This document shows, piece after piece, positions 6,738 to 33,144 of a stretch of DNA of 33,144 bases; the stretch's first letter is position 1, and every line of letters starts with the position of its first letter. The position numbers were made by a program, and so were the translations under genes. Source of the stretch: a virus (lineage: Duplodnaviria > Heunggongvirae > Uroviricota > Caudoviricetes); the IMG/VR virus record IMGVR_UViG_641736163_000007, positions 1 to 33,144 of that record, one strand, 5' to 3'. The notes under the pieces are model-generated. The model did no database searches. It was not told the origin of the DNA and saw nothing but the letters and a program-made list of their open reading frames with translations.

Positions 6738-7847
6738 TTAATCTGAGTCCATTTTCCCAAACTCTGTCAGGCCGAAAACGGAGCTACCAGAAACATGAGC
6801 TTGTAAGCCCGCTTCCTGCATTTCACTCAATTCAACTTCCTGGCTATCCTCTAATCCGATAGAGAACATGGGATAGGCCCAGTTCCAATTCGGATCAGGA
6901 ACCAAACTATTATTCTCTATCTTGAAAAAGCTGACCATGAGATGATGCCTTCCCTGTATCGCCTCTTCATCATTGATGTTGACCAGTACACCAAAGTGCT
7001 TGTAGCCGGCTTGTCCATTCTCGAACATTTTTATCTTGGTGCCGTTTCTGAACATCCAAAAAGAATGATTTCCAGTGGAATCAGCGACCTGCAAGTTATC
7101 TTCGTCAATTTCCCAATTAAGATATTGTTTGATATCAGACTTTGGTTTGAGTTTTTCGTCATTACTAAACCATTGTATTGCCGGAAGTGGAAGGTGAAGA
7201 CCTTCCGGCTGGGGAGGCTGACCTGCAGCAATGGAATGCATGATCTCTGTCATTGATGGAAGCCCCATCAAATGCCATACATCATGGATATCCTTTTTAA
7301 GTATAAGAAGCCCTTTGGATACACCATCCGCGTAAGTTGACTTTAAGCGGACTAGTATGTCCTTGTTACCATCTTTGTCGAGGTCTTCAATGTTTACTGA
7401 AGAAGCCACAACCTCGTCGTCCCCTGCGTCTGGGATGATTGCCCAATACCCAATATCGTAGAATCCAGGTCTGCCAACCACCTTATCTATCAGACTCTGT
7501 CCAGAGGGCTCGAAGACCATCAGGAAACGGCTAAGGGCACCATTTGTGCTCACAGCTCTTCCGTAGACTACAACGGAGTTTGAGGTGCTTAGATCGAGAG
7601 ACTCGCTAGCCACTGAGTCAAACGCCACTGAGTCCAAATGTGTGGCAAGCTGCTGCTGGATGCACTCCCGAGCCATTTCAACTAATTTTTCGCGAACATC
7701 AGCAGATCGTATTGGCTGTGAAGTGAAATGGAAAAGCCCTACTGTAGCCGCTATGCCTATTATTCCCGAAATAACGGTACTTAGAACCTGCTCCTTTACC
7801 ACTTTCACAACTTTCATCAATAGCTTCTTCAACTTCACTTCAGGCAC
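6738..7847 (-). CDS. Hypothetical membrane-anchored protein, cargo at the Z/fun position (start may be ATG at 7817)
   Basis: 369-aa ORF in a visibly AT-richer segment flanked by about 430 and 300 bp of non-coding DNA; Lys-rich N-terminus followed by one hydrophobic helix (VLSTVISGIIGIAATVGLFHF); DLDKDGNKD loop resembling a DxDxDG Ca-binding motif; no family recognised. Confidence 0.7.
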   Translation of the reverse strand: MPEVKLKKLLMKVVKVVKEQVLSTVISGIIGIAATVGLFHFTSQPIRSADVREKLVEMARECIQQQLATHLDSVAFDSVASESLDLSTSNSVVVYGRAVSTNGALSRFLMVFEPSGQSLIDKVVGRPGFYDIGYWAIIPDAGDDEVVASSVNIEDLDKDGNKDILVRLKSTYADGVSKGLLILKKDIHDVWHLMGLPSMTEIMHSIAAGQPPQPEGLHLPLPAIQWFSNDEKLKPKSDIKQYLNWEIDEDNLQVADSTGNHSFWMFRNGTKIKMFENGQAGYKHFGVLVNINDEEAIQGRHHLMVSFFKIENNSLVPDPNWNWAYPMFSIGLEDSQEVELSEMQEAGLQAHVSGSSVFGLTEFGKMDSD

Positions 7848-7888
7848 CTAAATACTATTAAACTTGTCATGGGAAAATCCGATTATTA

Positions 7889-8056
<168 letters not shown>

Positions 8057-8145: not shown

Positions 8146-8724
8146 TTATTGCGGCATTTCTGGCCATTCTATATCCGGAGTATTTTCCGACTGAACGCGA
8201 TTCAGTAGCACACGGTATTTTTTCCAGTGTGTCAGGCTTAACCTTTCTTCCTCGGTAGCCATATCTAAATCGACAGCATCCTGCAGCGTGGCAATAATTT
8301 CACCTGCATATGCAACCAGCTCTTTCTTCTGAGAGTCAGCCGCTCTGACAAGCGCATCACGCTCTGCATTCTCATCATTCACCCACGCATTTCCGTTCCA
8401 TTTCTGATAATCCCCATCCGGGGAAATGGCTGTCACGTCTGGAGGTAATGCGCCAAGTTCAGAAATATAAATGGCTGCTCCTGTTTTTGTTTCATAGACA
8501 GTCTTTCCACGATGGTCTTCCACCAGATCCCATTTCATTTCATCTGCATTGAAAACGGCGGCAAAACCCACCGGAATATCTGGAGGTGCAATGTCTGTAC
8601 TGTTTGCAGGAAGACCTGTATGCGGCGGAATATATGCGTCACTTTCGCCAATAAATTCATTGGTTCCATCAAGTAAATTGAAAACGCGGATAGTTTGTGT
8701 CTCTGCACTCATTCTGAAAGTCAT
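8146..8724 (-). CDS. G: Tail fibre assembly protein
   Basis: 192-aa ORF immediately after tail fibre gene, start overlapping H stop (TAATG); position and size consistent with a P2-type tail fibre assembly chaperone. Confidence 0.8.
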
Positions 8725-10541
8725 TATGCCAGCCTCACAATATAGTTATACGCAACGTTTTTTACGGTGTTCTCTGAATTACCTGTGGCACTTACAGTGA
8801 CGGTATGACTATGCGCGCCAATCGCAATGGAATGGCTGTAAGCACCAATGCCAACCGTGTGATTATGCTGACCAATGTCGACTGTATGGGCGTGTGCTCC
8901 CGCAGAGCTTGACACCTGGTTGGTTCCTGATACCTGTACGCGTTGTTTACCCCCGATGGAGTCACCACCGTAACGACCACCGACAGTGTGTGTATGCGCT
9001 CCCGTATTGTTTGTCGTTTTTGTGCCGTGGTTAAACGTGCTGACCGTTTTTGTCCCGTAATCAAACGAACTGGTTGTTTTCGTCCCTAAATCCGTACTGG
9101 ATGCACTGGCACTGTGGGTATGTGATTTAATTCCGTCCTGTTCCTGTGATAATACGGCGCGACCACTGGCGGGTTTGCCCTTGATTGTCCAGCCGCGCAT
9201 ATCTGGAATCACCCCTGACGGATAAGCTACTGCAAGCAGGGGATAGGCTGCTTTATCAAAAGCCTGCCCCTGCATCAGGGCATAGCCTGTAGGTACTGAA
9301 TCAGAAGGCCACGGGATTGGAGCACCTACCGGAAATGAATCCTGCGGTGTCCATGGTGTCCAGCCACCCGTTGAATACTGGCTGCGGGTATAGCTTCTTG
9401 ATGTGTTATAGACATAGTAAATTTGTGTTATTCCGGCATTTCTAAGCACAACCAGAGTACCTGCAAGATTCTCCGGGTATTTCAGCGATGCGCTTGTATT
9501 CGCATTCAGTGGCTGATGGTACAGTCCCGGCGTTTTGTAATTATCCAGATTCTGGTTTGCACCAATCCCAATACTCTGACCGTTAAAAATATCCTGCGAT
9601 GTAATATTGACATCATTGGTCAGCGGTTTGCCATTGACCTTACGCTCACCAGGAACGCGCCCGTTTGCATTGTCATTCGCGGCTTTAACCGCTTTTGGAG
9701 TCGCGGCAAGTGTTTCAGAATCGCTGTTAGTGGCGCTGCTTAACTGAACAATCCCTTTTCGTGCCGTGGTGGCGTCCTGTGCAGTGTATTTGCCATTAGC
9801 AAGGTCATATGCTGTCTTAACCGCCTTTGGCGTTGCTGCGAGCGTCTCAGATTCGCTGTTGATGGCACTACTTAGCTGAACAAGACCTTTTCGCCCCGTG
9901 CTGGCGTCCTGTGCAGTATATTTCCCGTTAGCAAGGTCATAGGCGTCCTTTACCGCTTTCGGCGTTGCGGCCAGTGTTTCAGACGTGCTGTTGGTCGCGC
10001 TGCTTAACTGAGTAAAACCTTTTGCGGTCAGCGAGGCGTCCGGGTGACGTCGTGACTGTTCATGCTCTGCAATCTTGTCATCAACGTAATCCTGCGTTGC
10101 CATCACTGTTGTGGTGTCGATGGTCAGATCCACTGAGGCCACACTGCTGACGATAATGACTATGCGGCAGGTCTGCGAACGTCCTGAGCCTTCGGCAAGA
10201 GCTGGCTTATAACTTTCGGCCATGTTCGCCACAGCAATTAACGTTCCCGCATCATCGTACAGGCCAAGCTCACGCGTCCAGAAACCGCCCACCTCCGGCG
10301 GGATGACCAGCTCTGCGATAATATAATTACTGTGTCGATTGGCCTGACTGATTTTATTCAGGGCATGTCGCCAGACCTCATTAACAAGTTTTGTCTGTCC
10401 GGCATCCGGCACCGGCAATTGACCGCCACCGTCCCCGACGGCCATCGTGGTAATGTTGACCTTCCGCCCTCCCGGCGCGGTTGCCGCTGCCAGCTTTGCT
10501 GCACCGGCAGTGGTGATAACGGTTTTGAATTTTGTGCTCAT
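8724..10541 (-). CDS. H: Tail fibre protein
   Basis: 605-aa ORF after baseplate genes; three in-frame 44-aa repeats; His-rich HxH-repeat C-terminal tip. Confidence 0.85.
9685..10040 (-). repeat. Approx. 2.7 tandem copies of a 132-bp in-frame repeat inside tail fibre gene H
   Basis: Units begin at 9685, 9817 and 9949 (ttaaccgc... motif); encode repeated [35 protein letters not shown] segments. Confidence 0.85.
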
Positions 10542-19407: not shown

Positions 19408-21180
19408 ATGACCATCACCACAGACACCACTCTTTTACACGACCCGCGTCGTCAGGCGGCGCTGCTGTACTGGCAGGGGTTTTCCGTGCCGCAGATTGCC
19501 GCCATGTTGCAGATGAAACGCCCGACGGTGCAGAGCTGGAAACAGCGCGACGGCTGGGACAGTGTTGCCCCCATCAGCCGTGTCGAAATGAGCCTGGAAG
19601 CGCGGCTGACCCAGCTCATCATCAAACCGCAGAAAACCGGCGGTGATTTCAAGGAAATTGACCTGCTCGGACGCCAGATTGAACGACTGGCGCGGGTCAA
19701 CCGTTACAGTCAGACCGGCAACGAGGCAGACCTTAATCCGAACGTCGCTAACCGCAACAAAGGCGGGCGTCGCAAACCGAAAAAGAATTTTTTCAGTGAC
19801 GAGGCCATCGAAAAGCTGGAGCAGATTTTCTTTGAGCAGTCTTTCGACTATCAGTTGCACTGGTATCGCGCCGGGCTTGAGCACCGCATCCGCGATATCC
19901 TGAAATCCCGCCAGATTGGCGCGACGTTTTATTTTTCCCGCGAGGCGCTGCTGCGTGCCCTGAAAACCGGTCATAACCAGATTTTTCTGTCGGCCAGTAA
20001 AACGCAGGCGTATGTGTTCCGCGAATACATCATCGCCTTTGCCCGTCTGGTTGACGTTGACCTGACCGGTGACCCGATTGTCCTGGGCAATAACGGCGCA
20101 AAACTGATTTTTCTCGGCACCAACTCCAACACCGCGCAGAGTCATAACGGCGACCTGTACGTCGATGAGATTTTCTGGATCCCGAATTTTCAGGTACTGC
20201 GTAAGGTGGCATCAGGTATGGCCTCACAGAGTCACCTGCGCTCGACCTATTTCTCCACCCCGTCCACGCTGGCGCACGACGCCTACCCGTTCTGGTCGGG
20301 TGAACTGTTTAACCGGGGACGCGCCAGCGCCGCCGAACGCGTGGAAATCGACGTCAGTCATAACGCCCTTGCCGGTGGGCTTCTCTGTGCGGACGGCCAG
20401 TGGCGACAGATTGTCACCATTGAGGACGCCCTGAAAGGCGGCTGCACGCTGTTCGACATTGAGCAGCTCAAACGCGAAAACAGCGCCGACGATTTTAAAA
20501 ACCTGTTCATGTGTGAATTTGTTGACGACAAGGCATCGGTGTTCCCGTTCGAGGAGCTGCAACGCTGCATGGTCGACACGCTGGAAGAATGGGAAGACTA
20601 TGCGCCGTTTGCCGCCAATCCGTTCGGCTCCCGCCCGGTATGGATTGGTTACGACCCGTCACACCGTGGCGACAGCGCCGGATGCGTGGTACTGGCACCG
20701 CCGGTGGTGGCCGGTGGCAAATTCAGAATACTTGAGCGTCACCAGTGGAAAGGCATGGACTTTGCCACCCAGGCTGAATCCATCCGCAAACTCACCGAAA
20801 AATACAACGTCGAATACATCGGTATTGATGCCACCGGCCTCGGTGTCGGCGTGTTCCAGCTCGTGCGCTCGTTCTATCCCGCCGCGCGCGACATCCGCTA
20901 CACGCCGGAAATGAAAACCGCAATGGTGCTCAAGGCAAAAGACGTCATCCGCCGTGGCTGTCTGGAATACGACGTCAGCGCCACCGACATCACCAGCTCG
21001 TTTATGGCTATCCGCAAGACCATGACCAGCATCGGACGCAGTGCCACCTATGAGGCCAGCCGCAGCGAGGAAGCCAGCCACGCCGACCTCGCCTGGGCGA
21101 CCATGCACGCCCTGTTAAATGAGCCACTCACCGCCGGTATCAGCACCCCGCTGACATCCACCATTCTGGAGTTTTACTGA
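19408..21180 (+). CDS. P: Terminase large (ATPase) subunit
   Basis: 590 aa from ATG at 19408 preceded by GAGG; divergent from O; stop overlaps Q start (TGATG). Confidence 0.85.
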   Translation: MTITTDTTLLHDPRRQAALLYWQGFSVPQIAAMLQMKRPTVQSWKQRDGWDSVAPISRVEMSLEARLTQLIIKPQKTGGDFKEIDLLGRQIERLARVNRYSQTGNEADLNPNVANRNKGGRRKPKKNFFSDEAIEKLEQIFFEQSFDYQLHWYRAGLEHRIRDILKSRQIGATFYFSREALLRALKTGHNQIFLSASKTQAYVFREYIIAFARLVDVDLTGDPIVLGNNGAKLIFLGTNSNTAQSHNGDLYVDEIFWIPNFQVLRKVASGMASQSHLRSTYFSTPSTLAHDAYPFWSGELFNRGRASAAERVEIDVSHNALAGGLLCADGQWRQIVTIEDALKGGCTLFDIEQLKRENSADDFKNLFMCEFVDDKASVFPFEELQRCMVDTLEEWEDYAPFAANPFGSRPVWIGYDPSHRGDSAGCVVLAPPVVAGGKFRILERHQWKGMDFATQAESIRKLTEKYNVEYIGIDATGLGVGVFQLVRSFYPAARDIRYTPEMKTAMVLKAKDVIRRGCLEYDVSATDITSSFMAIRKTMTSIGRSATYEASRSEEASHADLAWATMHALLNEPLTAGISTPLTSTILEFY

Positions 21181-21372
21181 TGAGCAAGAAAAAAGGGAAA
21201 ACACCGCAACCTGCGGCAAAAAAAATGACCGCCAGCGCCCCGAAAATGGAGGCATTCACCTTTGGTGAGCCGGTGCCGGTACTCGACTGCGTATTACCGT
21301 GAAGGAGATCGGTGAGTAACATCGATGGAGATCGGTTCGTGTCACTTTCACAGAACCGTTTTTAAATTACCT

Positions 21373-22122
21373 TCACTGATCTCCTTCGGTCAACGGAGAT
21401 TGTATTTTCCGCATTGATTCTCCTTTAAGTTCGATCTTGATACTGCCATGAACCAGTCGATCTAGGATGGCATCCGCATGTGTGGAGTCTCCGATCATTT
21501 TGTACCAGTTTTCCACCGGCAACTGGCTCACTACGATGATTGAGCCTCGTTGGTACATCAGATCCACTATTTCCAGCAGGTCGCTACGCTGTTCTGATGA
21601 GAGAGGTTCCAGCCCCCAGTCATCCAGAAGCAGCAGATCGCTATTATTCAGCCTGGTCAAAAGTTTGCTGTATCTTCCATCAGCATGCCCCTGATAGCAC
21701 TGTTCCATCAGCGCTTTAAGGCGATAATAGTAGACCTTGTATCCCTGTCGGCAGGCATTATGACCAAGTGCACATGCCAGGAACGTTTTACCGCTGCCGG
21801 TGGCCCCGGTCAGTAAAATATTTTGTTTCAGGGTTAACCAGTTTCCCTGACTGAGTGAACGGATGAGGGCCCTGTCCAGCCCTCTATTGTTACGATAATC
21901 CAGCTTTGATAACTCAGCATTAAGTCTGAACCGTGCATGTTTGATCAGACGCTCTGCCTTCCTGTTTTCACGGCAGGTTAGTTCTTCTGCTGTCAGTAAT
22001 GACAGGCGTTCTTCGAAGCCCAGCTCCTGGTATGTGCCCGGCTGAGCAAGTTGCTTTTTAAGCGCATCACGGAAGCCGGTGAGTTTAAGTGCGGTCAGTT
22101 GTTCGTAAAGATGATTCATCAT
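21373..22122 (-). CDS. istB: IS21-family helper ATPase IstB
   Basis: 249 aa with Walker A GATGSGKT and Walker B LLLLDDWG; follows istA. Confidence 0.9.
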   Translation of the reverse strand: MMNHLYEQLTALKLTGFRDALKKQLAQPGTYQELGFEERLSLLTAEELTCRENRKAERLIKHARFRLNAELSKLDYRNNRGLDRALIRSLSQGNWLTLKQNILLTGATGSGKTFLACALGHNACRQGYKVYYYRLKALMEQCYQGHADGRYSKLLTRLNNSDLLLLDDWGLEPLSSEQRSDLLEIVDLMYQRGSIIVVSQLPVENWYKMIGDSTHADAILDRLVHGSIKIELKGESMRKIQSPLTEGDQ

Positions 22123-22133
22123 TGGATCCCGTA

Positions 22134-23675
22134 TCAGTGGTAATACTCACTGCCGCGTACGTTTTCGTGTTCCATCGTGGATAACAGATCTGGTTTTGGA
22201 TCCTGAACAGGTTGTTTATCCAGACCTTTTTCCAGGATCGATTTAATACCTGACAGACGCCATACCTTTGTTTTCAGAGCTCTTGCACATGCTGCATTAA
22301 GTCTGGCTTTACTGTATTTTTTATGAAGGTTCAGGAGTCCAAGGCAGAAGCGATAGCTTTGTTCCGGATGTGGACGAGAGTTCAGTATATGAAGCACATA
22401 ACTATGAGTTTCACTGCCTATGTGCCCCGCCCATTCCAGAAGACGCTCTGGCGTCCAGGTGGCATGCTGTCGATGAGCTTCAGGCATGTGCTCGTTGCGG
22501 GTACTGTAGCCATAAGTACGCTTGCGCGGGTGCACAGCAACCTCCTGCCCCTGATTGAAGAGTCTTACCAGTTCTCCGGAGATCCATGCTTCCAGTTGCT
22601 GGCCTAACAGCGAACATGGAACCGAGTAGTAATGTTTGTCGATTTCCACGTGGTAATCGGCATGAACTCTGACTTTCTTCACCAGGGTGTAACTGTAACT
22701 GGCTTCAGGAAGAGGCTTCAGTGCGGGTTTATCAAGCTGGATGAAGAGTTCTGCACGTGAATAACCCAACTTCTGCATTATTTTGTTATTCAGTCTTTCC
22801 AGCAACTCCCGAATGCGCTGATTAAGCGATGCAAGGCTGTAGAAGATCTCATGCCTGATTCGGGCCATGATCCAGCGTTCAACAACCTGAACGCCAACTT
22901 CAGCTTTGGCTTTATCTTTCGGTTTACGTGGCCGCGCAGGCAAAACTGCGACATTATAATGCTCAAGCATCTGCTGGTAGGTAGGGTTAACGTCAGGATC
23001 ATACTTACATGCCCTGGATGTGGCGCTTTTCAGATTGTCCGGAACAACAAGTTCAGGAACGCCACCCAACCACTGGAAGCAGCGAACATGACTCATCACC
23101 CAGTCTTCAAGCTGCTGAGACCAGGTGGCCTCTGCCCATGTGTAACTTGATGCCCCGAGAACAGCTACGATGACCTGAGCAGTTCTTATTTCTCCGGTCT
23201 CAGGGTCGGTAACGCCAACGGTAGGTCCACAGTAATCAACGAAAAGTTTTTCGCCAGCTTTATGTACCTGACGCATTGATGGTGAAGTGGTTTTGAGCCA
23301 TTCACGGTACATCCGGCAGTAATGGTTATAGCTGTAAAAACCGCCTGGATTACGCTCACAGTATTCTTCCCAGAGTAGCTGCAGCGTCACGCATTTATTA
23401 CGCAGTTCCCGGTGTACTGTAGCCCAGTCAGGCAGAGAGTGCTTCTTCATCTTAACCTGGGTCTGAAGGAACGCATGTTTTAGTTTTGTATCATCCCATC
23501 CTGTAGGTAAGGGCCACTGCTTTATGCCAAGTTGAGCCGCCCGATTAGCATATCTGGATACAACGGAAGGGGAGATTGCAAGACTACGACCAATTTGTCG
23601 ATGGCTGAGTCCAACACAGTATTTAAGCCTAAGAATTTCTTTAAGTTTTCTCATAGAAATTGGAACTGTTGGCAT
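22134..23675 (-). CDS. istA: IS21-family transposase IstA
   Basis: 513 aa, N-terminal HTH-like region, upstream of istB in the same orientation. Confidence 0.85.
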   Translation of the reverse strand: MPTVPISMRKLKEILRLKYCVGLSHRQIGRSLAISPSVVSRYANRAAQLGIKQWPLPTGWDDTKLKHAFLQTQVKMKKHSLPDWATVHRELRNKCVTLQLLWEEYCERNPGGFYSYNHYCRMYREWLKTTSPSMRQVHKAGEKLFVDYCGPTVGVTDPETGEIRTAQVIVAVLGASSYTWAEATWSQQLEDWVMSHVRCFQWLGGVPELVVPDNLKSATSRACKYDPDVNPTYQQMLEHYNVAVLPARPRKPKDKAKAEVGVQVVERWIMARIRHEIFYSLASLNQRIRELLERLNNKIMQKLGYSRAELFIQLDKPALKPLPEASYSYTLVKKVRVHADYHVEIDKHYYSVPCSLLGQQLEAWISGELVRLFNQGQEVAVHPRKRTYGYSTRNEHMPEAHRQHATWTPERLLEWAGHIGSETHSYVLHILNSRPHPEQSYRFCLGLLNLHKKYSKARLNAACARALKTKVWRLSGIKSILEKGLDKQPVQDPKPDLLSTMEHENVRGSEYYH

Positions 23676-24806
23676 AGGTATCCTTTACCGGAATGGCAAA
23701 AGATACAGATCAACACACCTGTGAAGTTCCAATAACATTGATGGAGATCACTGAATAACAAAATGAGTCAAAAGTGATCTCCATCGATGTTATTCAGCGA
23801 TCTGTTCAAATGTTATTACCCGATCTCGATGGAAGTTATTGAGTGATCTCCTTTCATGAAAATACGCACTCGACCGCCGTGACATTCTGGATTACGTCGA
23901 GTGCATCAGTAACGGCAGATGGTATGAGCCACCGGTCAGCTTTACCGGTCTGGCAAAAAGCCTGCGTGCTGCCGTGCATCACAGCTCACCGATTTACGTC
24001 AAACGTAATATTCTGGCCTCGACATTTATCCCGCATCCGTGGCTTTCCCAGCAGGATTTCAGCCGCTTTGTGCTGGATTTTCTGGTGTTCGGTAATGCAT
24101 TTCTGGAAAAGCGTTACAGCACCACCGGTAAGGTCATCAGACTGGAAACCTCACCGGCAAAATATACCCGCCGTGGCGTGGAGGAGGATGTTTACTGGTG
24201 GGTGCCGTCCTTCAACGAGCCGACAGCCTTCGCGCCCGGTTCCGTGTTTCACCTGCTGGAGCCGGATATTAATCAGGAGCTGTACGGCCTGCCGGAATAT
24301 CTCAGCGCCCTTAACTCTGCCTGGCTGAATGAGTCGGCCACGCTGTTCCGCCGCAAGTATTACGAAAACGGCGCACATGCCGGATACATCATGTACGTCA
24401 CCGATGCCGTGCAGGATCGCAACGATATCGAAATGCTTCGCGAAAACATGATGAAGTCGAAAGGCCGCAACAACTTTAAAAACCTGTTTCTCTATGCCCC
24501 GCAGGGGAAAGCCGACGGCATTAAAATTATCCCGCTCAGTGAAGTGGCGACGAAGGACGATTTTTTTAATATCAAAAAAGCCAGCGCCGCTGACCTGCTG
24601 GACGCGCACCGCATCCCTTTTCAGTTGATGGGAGGCAAGCCGGAGAACGTCGGGTCGCTGGGCGATATTGAGAAAGTGGCAAAGGTCTTTGTCCGCAATG
24701 AGCTTATCCCGTTACAGGACAGGATCCGCGAGATAAACGGCTGGCTCGGTCAGGAGGTCATCCGCTTTAAAAACTACTCACTGGACACTGACAACGGCTG
24801 AACATC

Positions 24807-24828
24807 GCCGCCTGCGGGCGGCTTTTTT
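24807..24828 (+). terminator. Rho-independent terminator after portal gene Q
   Basis: GCCGCC-tgcg-GGCGGC stem-loop followed by TTTTTT, 6 nt after the Q stop codon. Confidence 0.75.
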
Positions 24829-24970: not shown

Positions 24971-24989
24971 GTGCTTTCCCCGCCTCGCC
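24971..24989. other. cos site (cohesive end sequence)
   Basis: gtgctttccccgcctcgcc is the reverse complement of GGCGAGGCGGGGAAAGCAC, which I recall as the 19-nt P2 cohesive end; lies between Q and the A-side accessory genes as expected. Confidence 0.7.
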
Positions 24990-25116: not shown

Positions 25117-25977
25117 TCAACAATAAGGATAACGATTTAAAATTTCATCTTCTTGATACCCCAGATAGTGAGACATCAATCCAATTGATGGTCTCGTTAT
25201 AGGGCTATCTATCAACGGATAACGAACCTCTAAATCCTCAAATTTTAAAATTTTCACATAGCCTTTGACCTTTTTCTTATTAATTAGAGATTCCGAATAC
25301 TCTGGAAAATTTTTTAATAAAGAGTAAATATCCATAATCAAACCATCTATCATCAACATAAGTCTCTCACTAACATCAATATAAAACGCAGCATCATTCG
25401 CACCTATAATATTGACAATATCATCATTCTTCATTCGAGATGACGGCACCGGAGAGCCTGCAGCAGAAATTATTTTACCTCTACACTCTTTATCGAATTC
25501 ATTCCTTAACTTTATAGCCTCCAATAAACTATTATATCGTCTTAGCACATCTTCAATAACAATAATATCAAGCTTCTCCGCTTCATTACTGCCTGACTCA
25601 CCGACCTTCCCCTCTCCTTCAGAAATAAGACAAGTCAATTCACTCACATCTATAGATATAGGCGCCCCATAAATAACCACCACTGGAAACATTAAAGCTC
25701 TCTCAATTGGATTGGTACTTGCACAAACCCCCTTGTAATAATTACTTTTCACTTGCAACAGAGTTGTCAAGGCTGAGAAAAGCTTACACATAGATTGATT
25801 TACAACATCTATTTTTTTCTTTTCGGCCTTAACATTTTCTTGCCTATTAAAAACCCTAATGGATATAAAGTAACTTAAAAAAGCTGACAGCATCGGAAGC
25901 AATATAGGAAGAATATAATTTTTAACAAAAGCCATACTTCCATCAATACCACCAATTACTTCAATTCTTGAGTCCAC
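25117..25977 (-). CDS. Hypothetical membrane-anchored protein, cargo at the tin/old position (start may be ATG at 25935)
   Basis: 286-aa ORF in very AT-rich DNA, where an open frame this long is unlikely by chance; one N-terminal hydrophobic helix followed by a Lys-rich stretch, suggesting a cytoplasmic C-terminal domain; no family recognised. Confidence 0.7.
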   Translation of the reverse strand: MDSRIEVIGGIDGSMAFVKNYILPILLPMLSAFLSYFISIRVFNRQENVKAEKKKIDVVNQSMCKLFSALTTLLQVKSNYYKGVCASTNPIERALMFPVVVIYGAPISIDVSELTCLISEGEGKVGESGSNEAEKLDIIVIEDVLRRYNSLLEAIKLRNEFDKECRGKIISAAGSPVPSSRMKNDDIVNIIGANDAAFYIDVSERLMLMIDGLIMDIYSLLKNFPEYSESLINKKKVKGYVKILKFEDLEVRYPLIDSPITRPSIGLMSHYLGYQEDEILNRYPYC

Positions 25978-26011: not shown

Positions 26012-26218
26012 TTAAAAAGCAGTTATTGTTCTATTGCAGCGTTCTGTCGCAACTTTCAAAGCATCGCGACCATCACTTAAGTACGGATATGAACCAATAT
26101 CTTTAAAATATTGAATACCTCTGCTTACACATTCTTCAACATCTTTTTTATGTCCATTATCACAACCAGACAACAGAAAAGTCGCAATAACAATTATGTA
26201 AAAAGCATTTTTATTCAT
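26012..26218 (-). CDS. Small putative lipoprotein (68 aa)
   Basis: MNKNAFYIIVIATFLLSGC: basic n-region, hydrophobic core, lipobox LSGC; two further Cys in mature part; AT-rich; directly upstream of the 286-aa gene. Confidence 0.6.
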   Translation of the reverse strand: MNKNAFYIIVIATFLLSGCDNGHKKDVEECVSRGIQYFKDIGSYPYLSDGRDALKVATERCNRTITAF

Positions 26219-26270
26219 TTCAATGATAATTCCTTTTATTTTAAATAAAATCATGTTCGACCGATGATAC

Positions 26271-26276
26271 ATTATA
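26271..26276 (-). promoter_or_regulatory. Candidate -10 hexamer (TATAAT) for the lipoprotein/286-aa cassette
   Basis: Perfect TATAAT on the minus strand about 55 nt upstream of the lipoprotein ATG, just after the A stop; no good -35. Confidence 0.3.
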
Positions 26277-26298
26277 AACAATCAGTTTAGTATTGTTC

Positions 26299-30649: not shown

Positions 30650-30844
30650 ATGAATAATCAAAATATTGACGAACTTATAACCACTCTCGAAAAAGCGGTT
30701 GCATTAGCAAATACCCTACCAACTCCAATGGGAGATTTTGAGGACGCTAAAAAAGTGGATGAATTAACTATTCAATTAAGAGAGATCATTCACCCTAAAA
30801 AGCCAGTCCAACTCAAAGGCTTTATTGATATAAATCATTTTTAA
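30650..30844 (+). CDS. Hypothetical small protein (64 aa), opposite orientation to early operon
   Basis: ATG preceded by GAGGTAATAA; AT-rich; upstream TGgTAAGAT -10-like element and a CCATGT-N5-ACATGG palindrome. Confidence 0.45.
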   Translation: MNNQNIDELITTLEKAVALANTLPTPMGDFEDAKKVDELTIQLREIIHPKKPVQLKGFIDINHF

Positions 30845-31286
30845 AATAGCATCTTGCATCCGTATGCTGTTTATACGGATGCGTCATCATGTCAAAAATA
30901 CTTTTCCAGTCATCAAGCCCTATTGACCATTTAATACTATTTATATCGCCTGATTTAGAAATTATCGTTTCACGAAGAGCCTTAGCGAGTTCCATGCGCT
31001 CTTGAACGGTCATACCAACGCATTCATATTTAATGCGCAAAAAAGAGTCATGAAATAAAGATTTCAAATTCAGCCGTAGAATTTCTTCATCACCATCTGA
31101 ACTAATAAAAACAAGTTCATCATTATCCAAAATGATATTTTGTTTTCTCAATTCATCGGCTGATTTATATTCTTTCGTACTATTAGCAAACTCACTATAC
31201 GTAATAGTCAGGCTGTTAGATGGTGATGCATCTTCAAGGTTTCCTCTGATGATAGTCACCGATGTTTTATTTAAATCTTGCCTCAT
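30822..31286 (-). CDS. Hypothetical protein (154 aa), AT-rich insertion downstream of cox
   Basis: ATG preceded by GGAGGAG, 10 nt after the cox stop; acidic; no family recognised. Confidence 0.6.
   Translation of the reverse strand: MRQDLNKTSVTIIRGNLEDASPSNSLTITYSEFANSTKEYKSADELRKQNIILDNDELVFISSDGDEEILRLNLKSLFHDSFLRIKYECVGMTVQERMELAKALRETIISKSGDINSIKWSIGLDDWKSIFDMMTHPYKQHTDARCYFKNDLYQ
30856..30882. terminator. Perfect 10-bp stem hairpin (GCATCCGTAT-N7-ATACGGATGC) at the convergent gene junction
   Basis: Read directly; lies 12 nt after the plus-strand 64-aa ORF stop but inside the 3' end of the 154-aa ORF; no strong T-tract. Confidence 0.3.
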
Positions 31287-31295
31287 GGCTCCTCC

Positions 31296-31652
31296 TTAGG
31301 CCGCGTGGCCATGTCTGGATTTGCTGTAACTTATGCGGTTCTTCCAGTCATGCCATTCTGTCGGAGCTTCATCGACTAGTTGAGCTGCATATTTGTCCCA
31401 CTCACGACGATTAATCCATAACTCAGCGTGACCGCCCGGCTTTAACGGGTCTGTCATATAGAATGCTGGCAGCTTTCCAGCTCGTGCCATTTCAGCCACC
31501 GCACGAGGAGTCTTACCGATGTAAAGAGCAAAACCCTCTTTCGACAGTAAATCTGACGGATCCGCAGCCAACTTAATGGAATCACGCTTGTTTTTTTTAA
31601 GAGCAGAAACTTCTTGTCTTTTCTCGTCACAAATTTCAGATCCGACATTCAT
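31296..31652 (-). CDS. cox: Cox-like excision/transcriptional regulator
   Basis: First gene of the early operon, divergent from C; contains the GKLP..MTDP segment I recall from P2 Cox; 118-aa ORF, true start may differ. Confidence 0.65.
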   Translation of the reverse strand: MNVGSEICDEKRQEVSALKKNKRDSIKLAADPSDLLSKEGFALYIGKTPRAVAEMARAGKLPAFYMTDPLKPGGHAELWINRREWDKYAAQLVDEAPTEWHDWKNRISYSKSRHGHAA

Positions 31653-31680
31653 TTTGCTATCCTCACATTGATGTCAGCGA

Positions 31681-31710
31681 TCTAGAGCGATTTAGAGTCG
31701 TTAGATGCTG
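31681..31710. promoter_or_regulatory. Putative immunity operator: imperfect direct repeats (TAGAGCGAT / TAGAGTCGT / TAGATGCTG) in the cox-C divergent promoter region
   Basis: Three about 10-bp-spaced direct repeats between the cox start (31652) and C start (31756); P2-type repressors bind direct repeats. Confidence 0.4.
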
Positions 31711-31755
31711 ATAAATTATATCAACTATGCAAAAGAATACGAGGTTAGAGAATTT

Positions 31756-32055
31756 ATGTCAACTGACACTAGCGAACGTTTGAAGCTTATCCGTGAGTCT
31801 GAACGTCTGAAAATGAAGGAGGTAGCTGAACTAGCTGGCATCAACTACACCACATATGCAGGTTATGAATCAGGTAAGGCTATGATGTCCCTAGAAAATG
31901 CTAAGAAGTTTTTTAAAGTAGAAAGGTTCAGAAAATACCGTGACTGGTTCATGTTTGATGAGACAGATCCCGCTGCCGGACAAATAGCCCCGGCGCTCGC
32001 ACACATTGGGCAAGACTCAACAACCTTGCACCACTCAGACCAAAAGACTGGCTGA
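31756..32055 (+). CDS. C: Immunity repressor C
   Basis: 99 aa from ATG at 31756 preceded by GAGG; the track ORF starts 17 codons upstream; HTH-like N-terminus; upstream of and co-oriented with int. Confidence 0.8.
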   Translation: MSTDTSERLKLIRESERLKMKEVAELAGINYTTYAGYESGKAMMSLENAKKFFKVERFRKYRDWFMFDETDPAAGQIAPALAHIGQDSTTLHHSDQKTG

Positions 32056-32148
32056 CGATTTATTCAGCATATGTGTGCAGTAAATGTACGAAAGAAAATT
32101 GCATTAATTTTCAAGTAGTAGAAGTAAACAGCGTCATCGGAGGGCTTT

Positions 32149-33144
32149 ATGTCTATTAAAAAGCTCGATGATGGTCGTTATGAAGTGGACGTCAGGCCGC
32201 AGGGTGCAGATGGAAAACGTATCAGGCGGAAATTTAAAACTAAAGGTGAAGCCCAGGCATTCGAGCGTCATGTCCTGGTTAACTACCACAACAAAGAGTG
32301 GTTGGAGAAGCCGGCCGACCGCCGAACTCTTACAGAGTTGTTAGGCAGATGGTGGATATATCACGGAAAATCACATGAGCGTGGAGATATTGAACGGGGG
32401 CGTTTGACGACAATAATTGCCAAATTTGCTGAGATGGGAGTGTCCAGGGCGGACCAGCTAACAAAGAAAACGATAACTGATTATCGCGTTGTAATGATGA
32501 ACGACGGTCTAAAACCAGCCAGCGTAAATCGGCATCTGGCAATAATGAGCGGGATGTTCACCAAGTTAATTGACGCCGGTGAATATCACTCTCACAACCC
32601 GTTCCGTGAGGTGAAGCGGTTACGTGAAGCTGTTACGGAAATGGCTTTTTTGTCCAGTGAAGAGATTACGCGGCTGCTATCCATGCTTGATGGTGATGAA
32701 TTAAATGCGACTCTGGTCTGCCTTTCTACTGGTGGACGCTGGAGTGAAGTGTCTAATTTAAAAGCTGAACACATCATTAACCAAATGGTTACGTTTATGA
32801 AAACCAAAAACGGAAAGCGCAGGACAATTCCCGTTTCGCAGGACTTGATTAAACGGATCAAAACCAAAAATTCTGGCAGGCTTTTTAATGCCAGTTACTA
32901 CAAAGTGCGCAACGCTCTCAGGGAAGTAAAACCCGATTTACCTGACGGACAGGCAGTGCATGTTTTGAGGCATACATTTGCCACACATTTTATAATGAAT
33001 GGAGGTAACATAATCACATTGCAGCGCATCCTGGGTCATTCTAACATTCAGCAAACTATGACCTACGCACACTTTGCACCGGATTTCTTACAAGATGCTG
33101 TGACTCTTAACCCGGTGTCAGGAATGTCCATAATGCGTCCATAA
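32149..33144 (+). CDS. int: Tyrosine integrase
   Basis: 331 aa; C-terminal catalytic signature (HVLRHTFAT ... GHSNIQQTMTYAHF) with conserved R, HxxR and Y; ends at the window edge. Confidence 0.9.
   Translation: MSIKKLDDGRYEVDVRPQGADGKRIRRKFKTKGEAQAFERHVLVNYHNKEWLEKPADRRTLTELLGRWWIYHGKSHERGDIERGRLTTIIAKFAEMGVSRADQLTKKTITDYRVVMMNDGLKPASVNRHLAIMSGMFTKLIDAGEYHSHNPFREVKRLREAVTEMAFLSSEEITRLLSMLDGDELNATLVCLSTGGRWSEVSNLKAEHIINQMVTFMKTKNGKRRTIPVSQDLIKRIKTKNSGRLFNASYYKVRNALREVKPDLPDGQAVHVLRHTFATHFIMNGGNIITLQRILGHSNIQQTMTYAHFAPDFLQDAVTLNPVSGMSIMRP

Follow-up and report, generated by a model that had tools for sequence, protein, structure and literature searches.

The gpQ protein of bacteriophage P2 assembles into the dodecameric portal of the unique vertex, which DNA packaging requires (PMC7552001). 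Its mature form, Q*, comprises residues 27-340 (bioRxiv 10.64898/2026.09.14.750843). The P-Q operon of P2 has the order P, Q, tQ terminator and cos. Prophages with a morphogenesis or packaging gene broken by an insertion sequence (IS) have been described in E. coli O157 Sakai (Asadulghani et al. 2009, PMC2669165), for which excision, replication or assisted packaging may still be possible (PMC2669165). Gene knock-out by simple insertion is also known for ISEc12, whose copy in tssM marks ST131 clade C and is flanked by a 5-bp duplication (PMC10711316). Here, a stretch of DNA of 33,144 nucleotides (IMG/VR record IMGVR_UViG_641736163_000007) was analysed over its whole length, which is called the window. 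By 100% sequence identity, the window was identified as a P2-like (Peduovirus) prophage of the type strain of Escherichia albertii, TW07627, and its portal gene Q is split by a copy of ISEc12. With high confidence, this is judged to be a recent insertion that left the prophage with a null allele of Q (Q::ISEc12). The locus shares with P2 the order P, Q, tQ terminator and cos, and its rebuilt Q also has 344 residues. In contrast to P2, its Q is interrupted, its C, Int and Cox are divergent, and the non-essential genes old, tin, orf91, fun(Z) and orf30 have either been replaced or are missing. With the Sakai prophages it shares an IS-broken gene of morphogenesis or packaging. However, those prophages mostly have several defects, and the P2-like Sp13 is without most of the morphogenetic genes, whereas one lesion is visible in the window prophage.

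The anatomy of the split gene can be read directly from the window. The first gene of the operon, P, encodes the terminase large subunit (19408..21180, + strand) and is intact. It aligns with residues 1-590 of P2 gpP at 99.8% identity (tblastn) and matches the Pfam families Terminase_5, Terminase_6N and Terminase_6C. The ATG of Q overlaps the stop codon of P, and the 5' fragment of Q (21180..21287, + strand) carries portal codons 1-36. These 36 native codons are followed by four IS-derived codons (CVLP) and a TGA at 21300-21302, so that a hybrid open reading frame (ORF) of 40 residues is formed. The 3' fragment (23875..24801, + strand) carries portal codons 37-344 and the stop codon, and it aligns with residues 35-343 of P2 gpQ at 99.7% identity (tblastn). 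Its frame is closed upstream by a TGA at 23857-23859 in the IS end. The first canonical start of this frame is the GTG at 23974, which corresponds to residue 70, and no ribosome-binding site was evident when the 3' fragment was inspected. The break falls after residue 36 of Q, that is, inside mature Q*.

The interrupting element (21288..23868, - strand) is 2,581 bp long, has the ends TGCGT...ACGCA, and carries istA and istB antisense to P and Q. Its terminal sequences are TGCGTATT...AATACGCA, which are of the TG...CA type. The terminal inverted repeats are imperfect and about 50 bp long. In a gapped alignment, 38 of 49 positions are identical, with one gap of 1 nt and the first 8 nt perfect. 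The repeat on the istB side, IRR (21288..21336), contains two copies of GGAGATC, and that on the istA side, IRL (23820..23868), contains the TGA in frame with downstream Q. Subterminal GGAGATC/GATCTCC repeats lie at 21304 and 21327 (the two IRR copies), and at 21378, 23743, 23776 and 23845. The two genes are consecutive, istA then istB, with an 11-nt gap between them. The istA gene (22134..23675, - strand) encodes a DDE transposase of 513 residues, which scored 309 bits against NF033546 (cut-off 160) and also matched PF00665 and PF22483. Its layout is an N-terminal helix-turn-helix (HTH), the rve core and a Mu-transposase C-terminal domain (Mu-transpos_C_2). The istB gene (21373..22122, - strand) encodes an AAA+ helper ATPase of 249 residues, with 227 bits against PF01695 and 270 bits against NF038214 (cut-off 200). 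IstB has the Walker A motif GATGSGKT at residue 106 (21784..21807) and the Walker B motif LLLLDD at residue 163 (21619..21636). An earlier note on this DNA, which was made from the sequence, had ascribed Walker motifs to both proteins; those of IstB are present, but a check of the IstA sequence revealed no P-loop.

The identity of the element is plain at the nucleotide level. All of its 2,581 bp are 100% identical to copies annotated by RefSeq/PGAP as 'IS21-like element ISEc12 family', and the name ISEc12 rests on that annotation of identical copies. Copies covering at least 80% of the element are present in 1,366 E. coli genomes, in chromosomes as well as plasmids. The istA-istB pair, the AAA+ IstB, the imperfect TG...CA repeats and a short target duplication, all found here, are the marks of the IS21 family. 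Target-site duplications in this family range from 4 to 8 bp. ISEc12 is a known and evidently active gene-disrupting IS.

The element is flanked by a direct repeat of CTCGAC, with the left copy at 21282..21287 and the right copy at 23869..23874, and the empty site has a single copy. A match of 6 nt at fixed positions is expected by chance at about 1/4096. In-silico excision of the element together with one CTCGAC gave an ORF of 1,035 nt with 344 codons, ending at 24801, and the empty-site string is GGTACTCGACCGCC. The rebuilt Q is identical to P2 gpQ (NP_046757.1) at 340 of 344 residues and at 1,015 of 1,035 nt. It also matched the portal families TIGR01540 (252 bits, cut-off 166) and PF04860 (53 bits, cut-off 39.1). 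A query of 600 nt over the rebuilt site found matches of at least 80% of its length in 1,560 of 5,426 complete E. coli genomes, and the top matches cover 600 of 600 nt in a single ungapped piece with 99.7% identity. Because of the low chance expectation and the uninterrupted E. coli matches, the duplication and the exact empty site are considered real and not a product of chance. The earlier note had described the Q frame as stopping 36 codons in and resuming 2.58 kb later, behind an IS21-family element with TG...CA ends, imperfect inverted repeats and a 6-bp CTCGAC duplication, the removal of which would restore one portal ORF. The coordinates hold (21287; 21288..23868), the duplication was seen again on re-inspection, the excised sequence translates as one portal ORF, and the element can be specified as ISEc12.

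The source of the window was identified by exact matches. It is 100% identical to CH991859.1 of GCA_000155105.1 (over 18 kb), and further 100%-identical records are GCA_022833075.1, GCA_002965745.1, GCA_012532395.1, GCA_012532475.1 and the Logan assembly SRR9425279. Identical proteins bear the names Escherichia albertii TW07627 and E. albertii NBRC 107761 = DSM 17582 (type strain). The chromosomal flank, ycaD-ycaM, shares only 85.7% identity with E. coli, as would be expected of another Escherichia species. The prophage is inserted between pflB and pflA, a site that is not of the P2 locI type, and in the source genome the 13-bp att core ACCAATAACTGAC is present at both prophage ends between these genes. 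No publication was found in a literature search on the source accessions. GCA_000155105.1 and GCA_022833075.1 contain both junction strings of the insertion, and the right one also occurs in GCA_002965745.1 and Logan SRR9425279. The 40-residue hybrid ORF is annotated on 10 public contigs. On the other hand, 401-nt junction queries gave no contiguous match in the 5,426 complete E. coli genomes, and no GTDB species representative contained an exact 34-nt junction string. All assemblies in which the allele was found are 100% identical to one another, and they either come from TW07627 / NBRC 107761 or cannot be told apart from the type strain.

The integrity of the other genes was examined by comparing the proteins of the P2 reference record with the window by tblastn. 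The genes P, O, N, M, L, X, Y, K, R, S, V, W, J, I, FI, FII, E, T, U, D, B and A are full-length and have 93-100% identity to P2. H and G are open ORFs with distal parts exchanged relative to P2; H aligns with P2 residues 1-251 only, and G with residues 80-175 at 40% identity. A Rho-independent terminator, GCCGCC-TGCG-GGCGGC followed by T6 (24807..24828, + strand), stands after Q and is the counterpart of P2 tQ. The cos site (24971..24989, - strand) was assigned by sequence match and is an exact copy of the 19-nt P2 cohesive end GGCGAGGCGGGGAAAGCAC. The int gene is present, and ogr follows D in the source genome. The essential genes in P2 order, together with cos, ogr, int and att, identify the window as a P2-like prophage. 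The integration and immunity module is unlike that of P2, with identities of 44% for C, 53% for Int and 35% for Cox. The regions divergent from P2 are this module (31296..33144) and the H-G region (8146..10541). In the early operon, between cox and orf78, there is an ORF of 154 residues (30822..31286, - strand), the exact sequence of which occurs on 324 contigs across Escherichia. It matched none of the families of Pfam, PADLOC, PHROGs or NCBIfam.

The events behind this allele can be proposed from what is known of the IS21 family. A copy of ISEc12 would have transposed into Q at codon 36/37, with IstA, the DDE transposase, cutting at the TG...CA ends and IstB, the AAA+ ATPase, capturing the target DNA. 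Repair of a staggered cut would then have produced the 6-bp CTCGAC duplication. The resulting allele is predicted to be null, since its 5' part would supply only 36 native residues and its 3' part would have neither a promoter of its own nor a canonical start before residue 70. No portal-containing procapsids would be made and no DNA would be packaged, and infectious particles would not be released by the prophage by itself. As far as can be seen from the sequence, Q::ISEc12 is the single visible lesion of the prophage. The prophage is otherwise complete, but with this lesion it very probably cannot make virions on its own. The view of the earlier note that the portal loss makes the prophage likely defective and non-productive is supported as an inference of this kind. 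Lysogeny, cargo expression, excision, replication, tail production and lysis would be kept. Since Q stands at the end of the P-Q operon, no polar effect on other genes is expected. The prophage presumably could not act as a helper for a P4-type satellite. In principle, the lesion would be reversible through recombination with, or complementation by, another P2-like phage. Mitomycin C, which had been suggested earlier for induction, would be a weak test because repressors of the P2 type are not cleaved in the SOS response. The C-type repressor here has only an HTH domain and no peptidase domain, and P2 is not SOS-inducible (PMC2669165).

The insertion was compared with ISEc12 elsewhere. The copies in E. 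coli chromosomes and plasmids have the same 2,581 bp, istA and istB products, TG...CA ends and inverted repeats. They differ from the window copy in that the host here is E. albertii and the duplication here is 6 bp, whereas it is 5 or 7 bp at 22 other copies. In P2-like prophages of E. coli, ISEc12 was found at three other sites of the P-Q region, all in the same orientation (including CP173561, CP116088 and CP107134). At one of them, which is shared by five genomes, NZ_CP173561.1 (1612..4202), AP022326, AP042495, AP042676 and CP026853, the IS stands precisely between the stop codon of P and the ATG of Q. There, the 5-bp duplication ATGAG re-creates the ATG of Q, neither ORF is interrupted, and the annotation gives an intact portal. 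An insertion of the NZ_CP173561.1 type puts 2.58 kb of antisense IS between Q and P with the promoter. The other two sites are inside Q, at codon ~27 (duplication CATTCAC) and at about nucleotide 700 (duplication AAGGC). The IS and the phage type are thus the same as in the window but the positions are different, and the window insertion breaks the ORF whereas that of the CP173561 type does not. The different positions indicate independent events. The ISEc12 duplications look bimodal (5 or 7 bp), with the window copy as the sole 6-bp case, and four of the seven 7-bp duplications end in CTGAC or CTGAG.

A hotspot with an orientation bias at the 5' end of Q was considered, as the four P-Q insertions, that of the window included, are co-oriented and three of them lie within 108 bp. 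This idea was rejected on the spread of the insertions in IMG/VR, where ISEc12 sites in P2-like prophages were found in H, T, FI, FII, D, G, A, the 3' end of Q, cos and O/P, in both orientations. Since the sites are dispersed and of both orientations, no Q-specific targeting is indicated, and P2-like prophages are just frequent carriers of IS insertions. At least 18 of the 40 IMG/VR viral contigs that carry an ISEc12 end are P2-like prophages. A true preference of ISEc12 for P2-like prophage DNA, which would make it a recurrent grounding agent of this phage family, is considered improbable. In its favour are this share of roughly half, the three independent insertions within 108 bp at the 5' side of Q, and the two-mode 5-/7-bp duplications from which the 6-bp window copy deviates. 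This share of P2-like contigs may have come about by neutral accumulation in dispensable DNA, by the composition of the database or by a true preference.

Two P2 loci are known to carry anti-phage genes, gpA-gpQ and Z/fun (PMC9122126), and both hold cargo in the window. In the cos-proximal gpA-gpQ hotspot, two ORFs (25117..25977 and 26012..26281, both - strand) replace old and tin. They encode a protein of 286 residues with an N-terminal hydrophobic segment and a small predicted lipoprotein with an LSGC lipobox (68-89 residues, depending on the start). The two ORFs belong to PHROGs 21267 and 32041, to which no function has been assigned. This cassette is rare and was found in 4 of the 5,426 complete E. 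coli genomes at 97.7% identity. The 286-residue protein and the predicted lipoprotein are candidates for a pair that acts in exclusion or defence. The Z/fun hotspot between FI and G (6738..7817, - strand) encodes a protein of 359 residues with an N-terminal hydrophobic segment, which belongs to PHROG 15038 (unknown function). It is adjoined, at about 7886..8020, by a 135-bp stretch, for which the annotation of 99%-identical E. coli loci gives a remnant of an IS3-family transposase. All of the cargo ORFs are open and full-length relative to their PHROG families. Sequence searches of PADLOC, Pfam, NCBIfam and PDB gave no match for them, and a defence role is therefore a guess from position. Four related accessions were looked up in the supplements of Rousset et al. 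2022 and were absent from them. The accessory islands, which the earlier note had called intact, as expected for a prophage that carries defence genes, are indeed full-length and placed in P2 hotspots, but the assignment to defence is unsupported.

In the presence of this cargo, the Q knock-out might be thought adaptive: selection would have locked a useful defence-carrying prophage in the chromosome and stopped its spread. Full-length cargo ORFs in two loci for anti-phage genes are in agreement with such a process, the grounding of prophages by IS elements is a recognised idea (PMC6379469), and ISEc12 is present in many P2-like prophages. However, the sole lesion leaves the lysis, replication, excision and tail genes intact, so that the potentially lethal functions are not disarmed. 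The IS has zero divergence from other copies (100% identity). The allele is confined to identical assemblies and is absent from the 5,426 E. coli genomes and the GTDB species representatives. The cargo, moreover, has no match to any known defence family, and a neutral build-up of IS insertions in prophages happens anyway. A domesticated prophage is recognised by several lesions or lost lytic modules and by a remnant kept across a diversified lineage, and neither was found here. An adaptive knock-out is therefore considered very unlikely, and the description of the prophage as domesticated in the earlier note is not borne out. The single lesion, the undiverged IS, the intact lysis and replication genes and the restriction to identical assemblies indicate instead that Q::ISEc12 is a recent and probably neutral accident.

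Some observations weigh against a null allele and have to be considered. The loss of portal function is inferred with the sequence alone as its basis. Non-canonical in-frame starts, ATT at 23884 and CTG at 23887, stand just past the IS, and one annotation pipeline predicts a product of 305 residues starting there. A co-resident or superinfecting P2-like phage could provide Q in trans. The duplication itself is atypical of ISEc12, as 15 of the 22 other copies have 5 bp, 7 have 7 bp and none has 6 bp. Nevertheless, the exact empty site puts the insertion beyond doubt despite this unusual length. The other points would allow the prophage to be still productive, either with a truncated portal made from a start past the IS or with Q supplied routinely in trans by a resident P2-like element. 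For the truncated portal, it can be added that the insertion is just 10 residues into the mature portal, which begins at residue 27. For the supply in trans, defective prophages are known to be packageable via inter-prophage interactions (PMC2669165), and the genome including the IS is estimated at about 33.6 kb, the size of wild-type P2, so that it would fit the P2 capsid if packaged in trans. On the other hand, translation into the 3' fragment would meet the TGA in frame within the IS end, and the residues before 70 have neither a canonical start nor a ribosome-binding site. No Shine-Dalgarno-like sequence is present ahead of ATT 23884 or CTG 23887. The 2.6 kb of antisense IS would have to be transcribed through, and the N-terminal pro-region would be lost. 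A further P2-like prophage was not found, although no search was aimed at one. Only a slim chance, therefore, is given to a still productive prophage. A misplacement of the repeated IS inside Q by the assembler can be dismissed as practically impossible because, although IS elements often break or mis-join short-read assemblies and both junctions are at contig ends in GCA_002965745.1, identical junctions recur in independent assemblies, namely a scaffold-level assembly of 2008 and a 4.69-Mb contig of a later one, and the perfect 6-bp target duplication with its exact empty site marks a real transposition.

For the null insertion in Q, the IS, the gene and the phage type are all known ones. It is an ordinary event that is already known in kind and raises no new question. 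For annotation, it means that the P2-like prophage of the E. albertii type strain is the carrier of a portal pseudogene (Q::ISEc12). Neither a phage yield nor help for P4-like satellites would be expected from this prophage unless Q is supplied. Q::ISEc12 is a clean case of a prophage that was freshly inactivated by one hit, and it advises caution against inferring domestication from one IS insertion.

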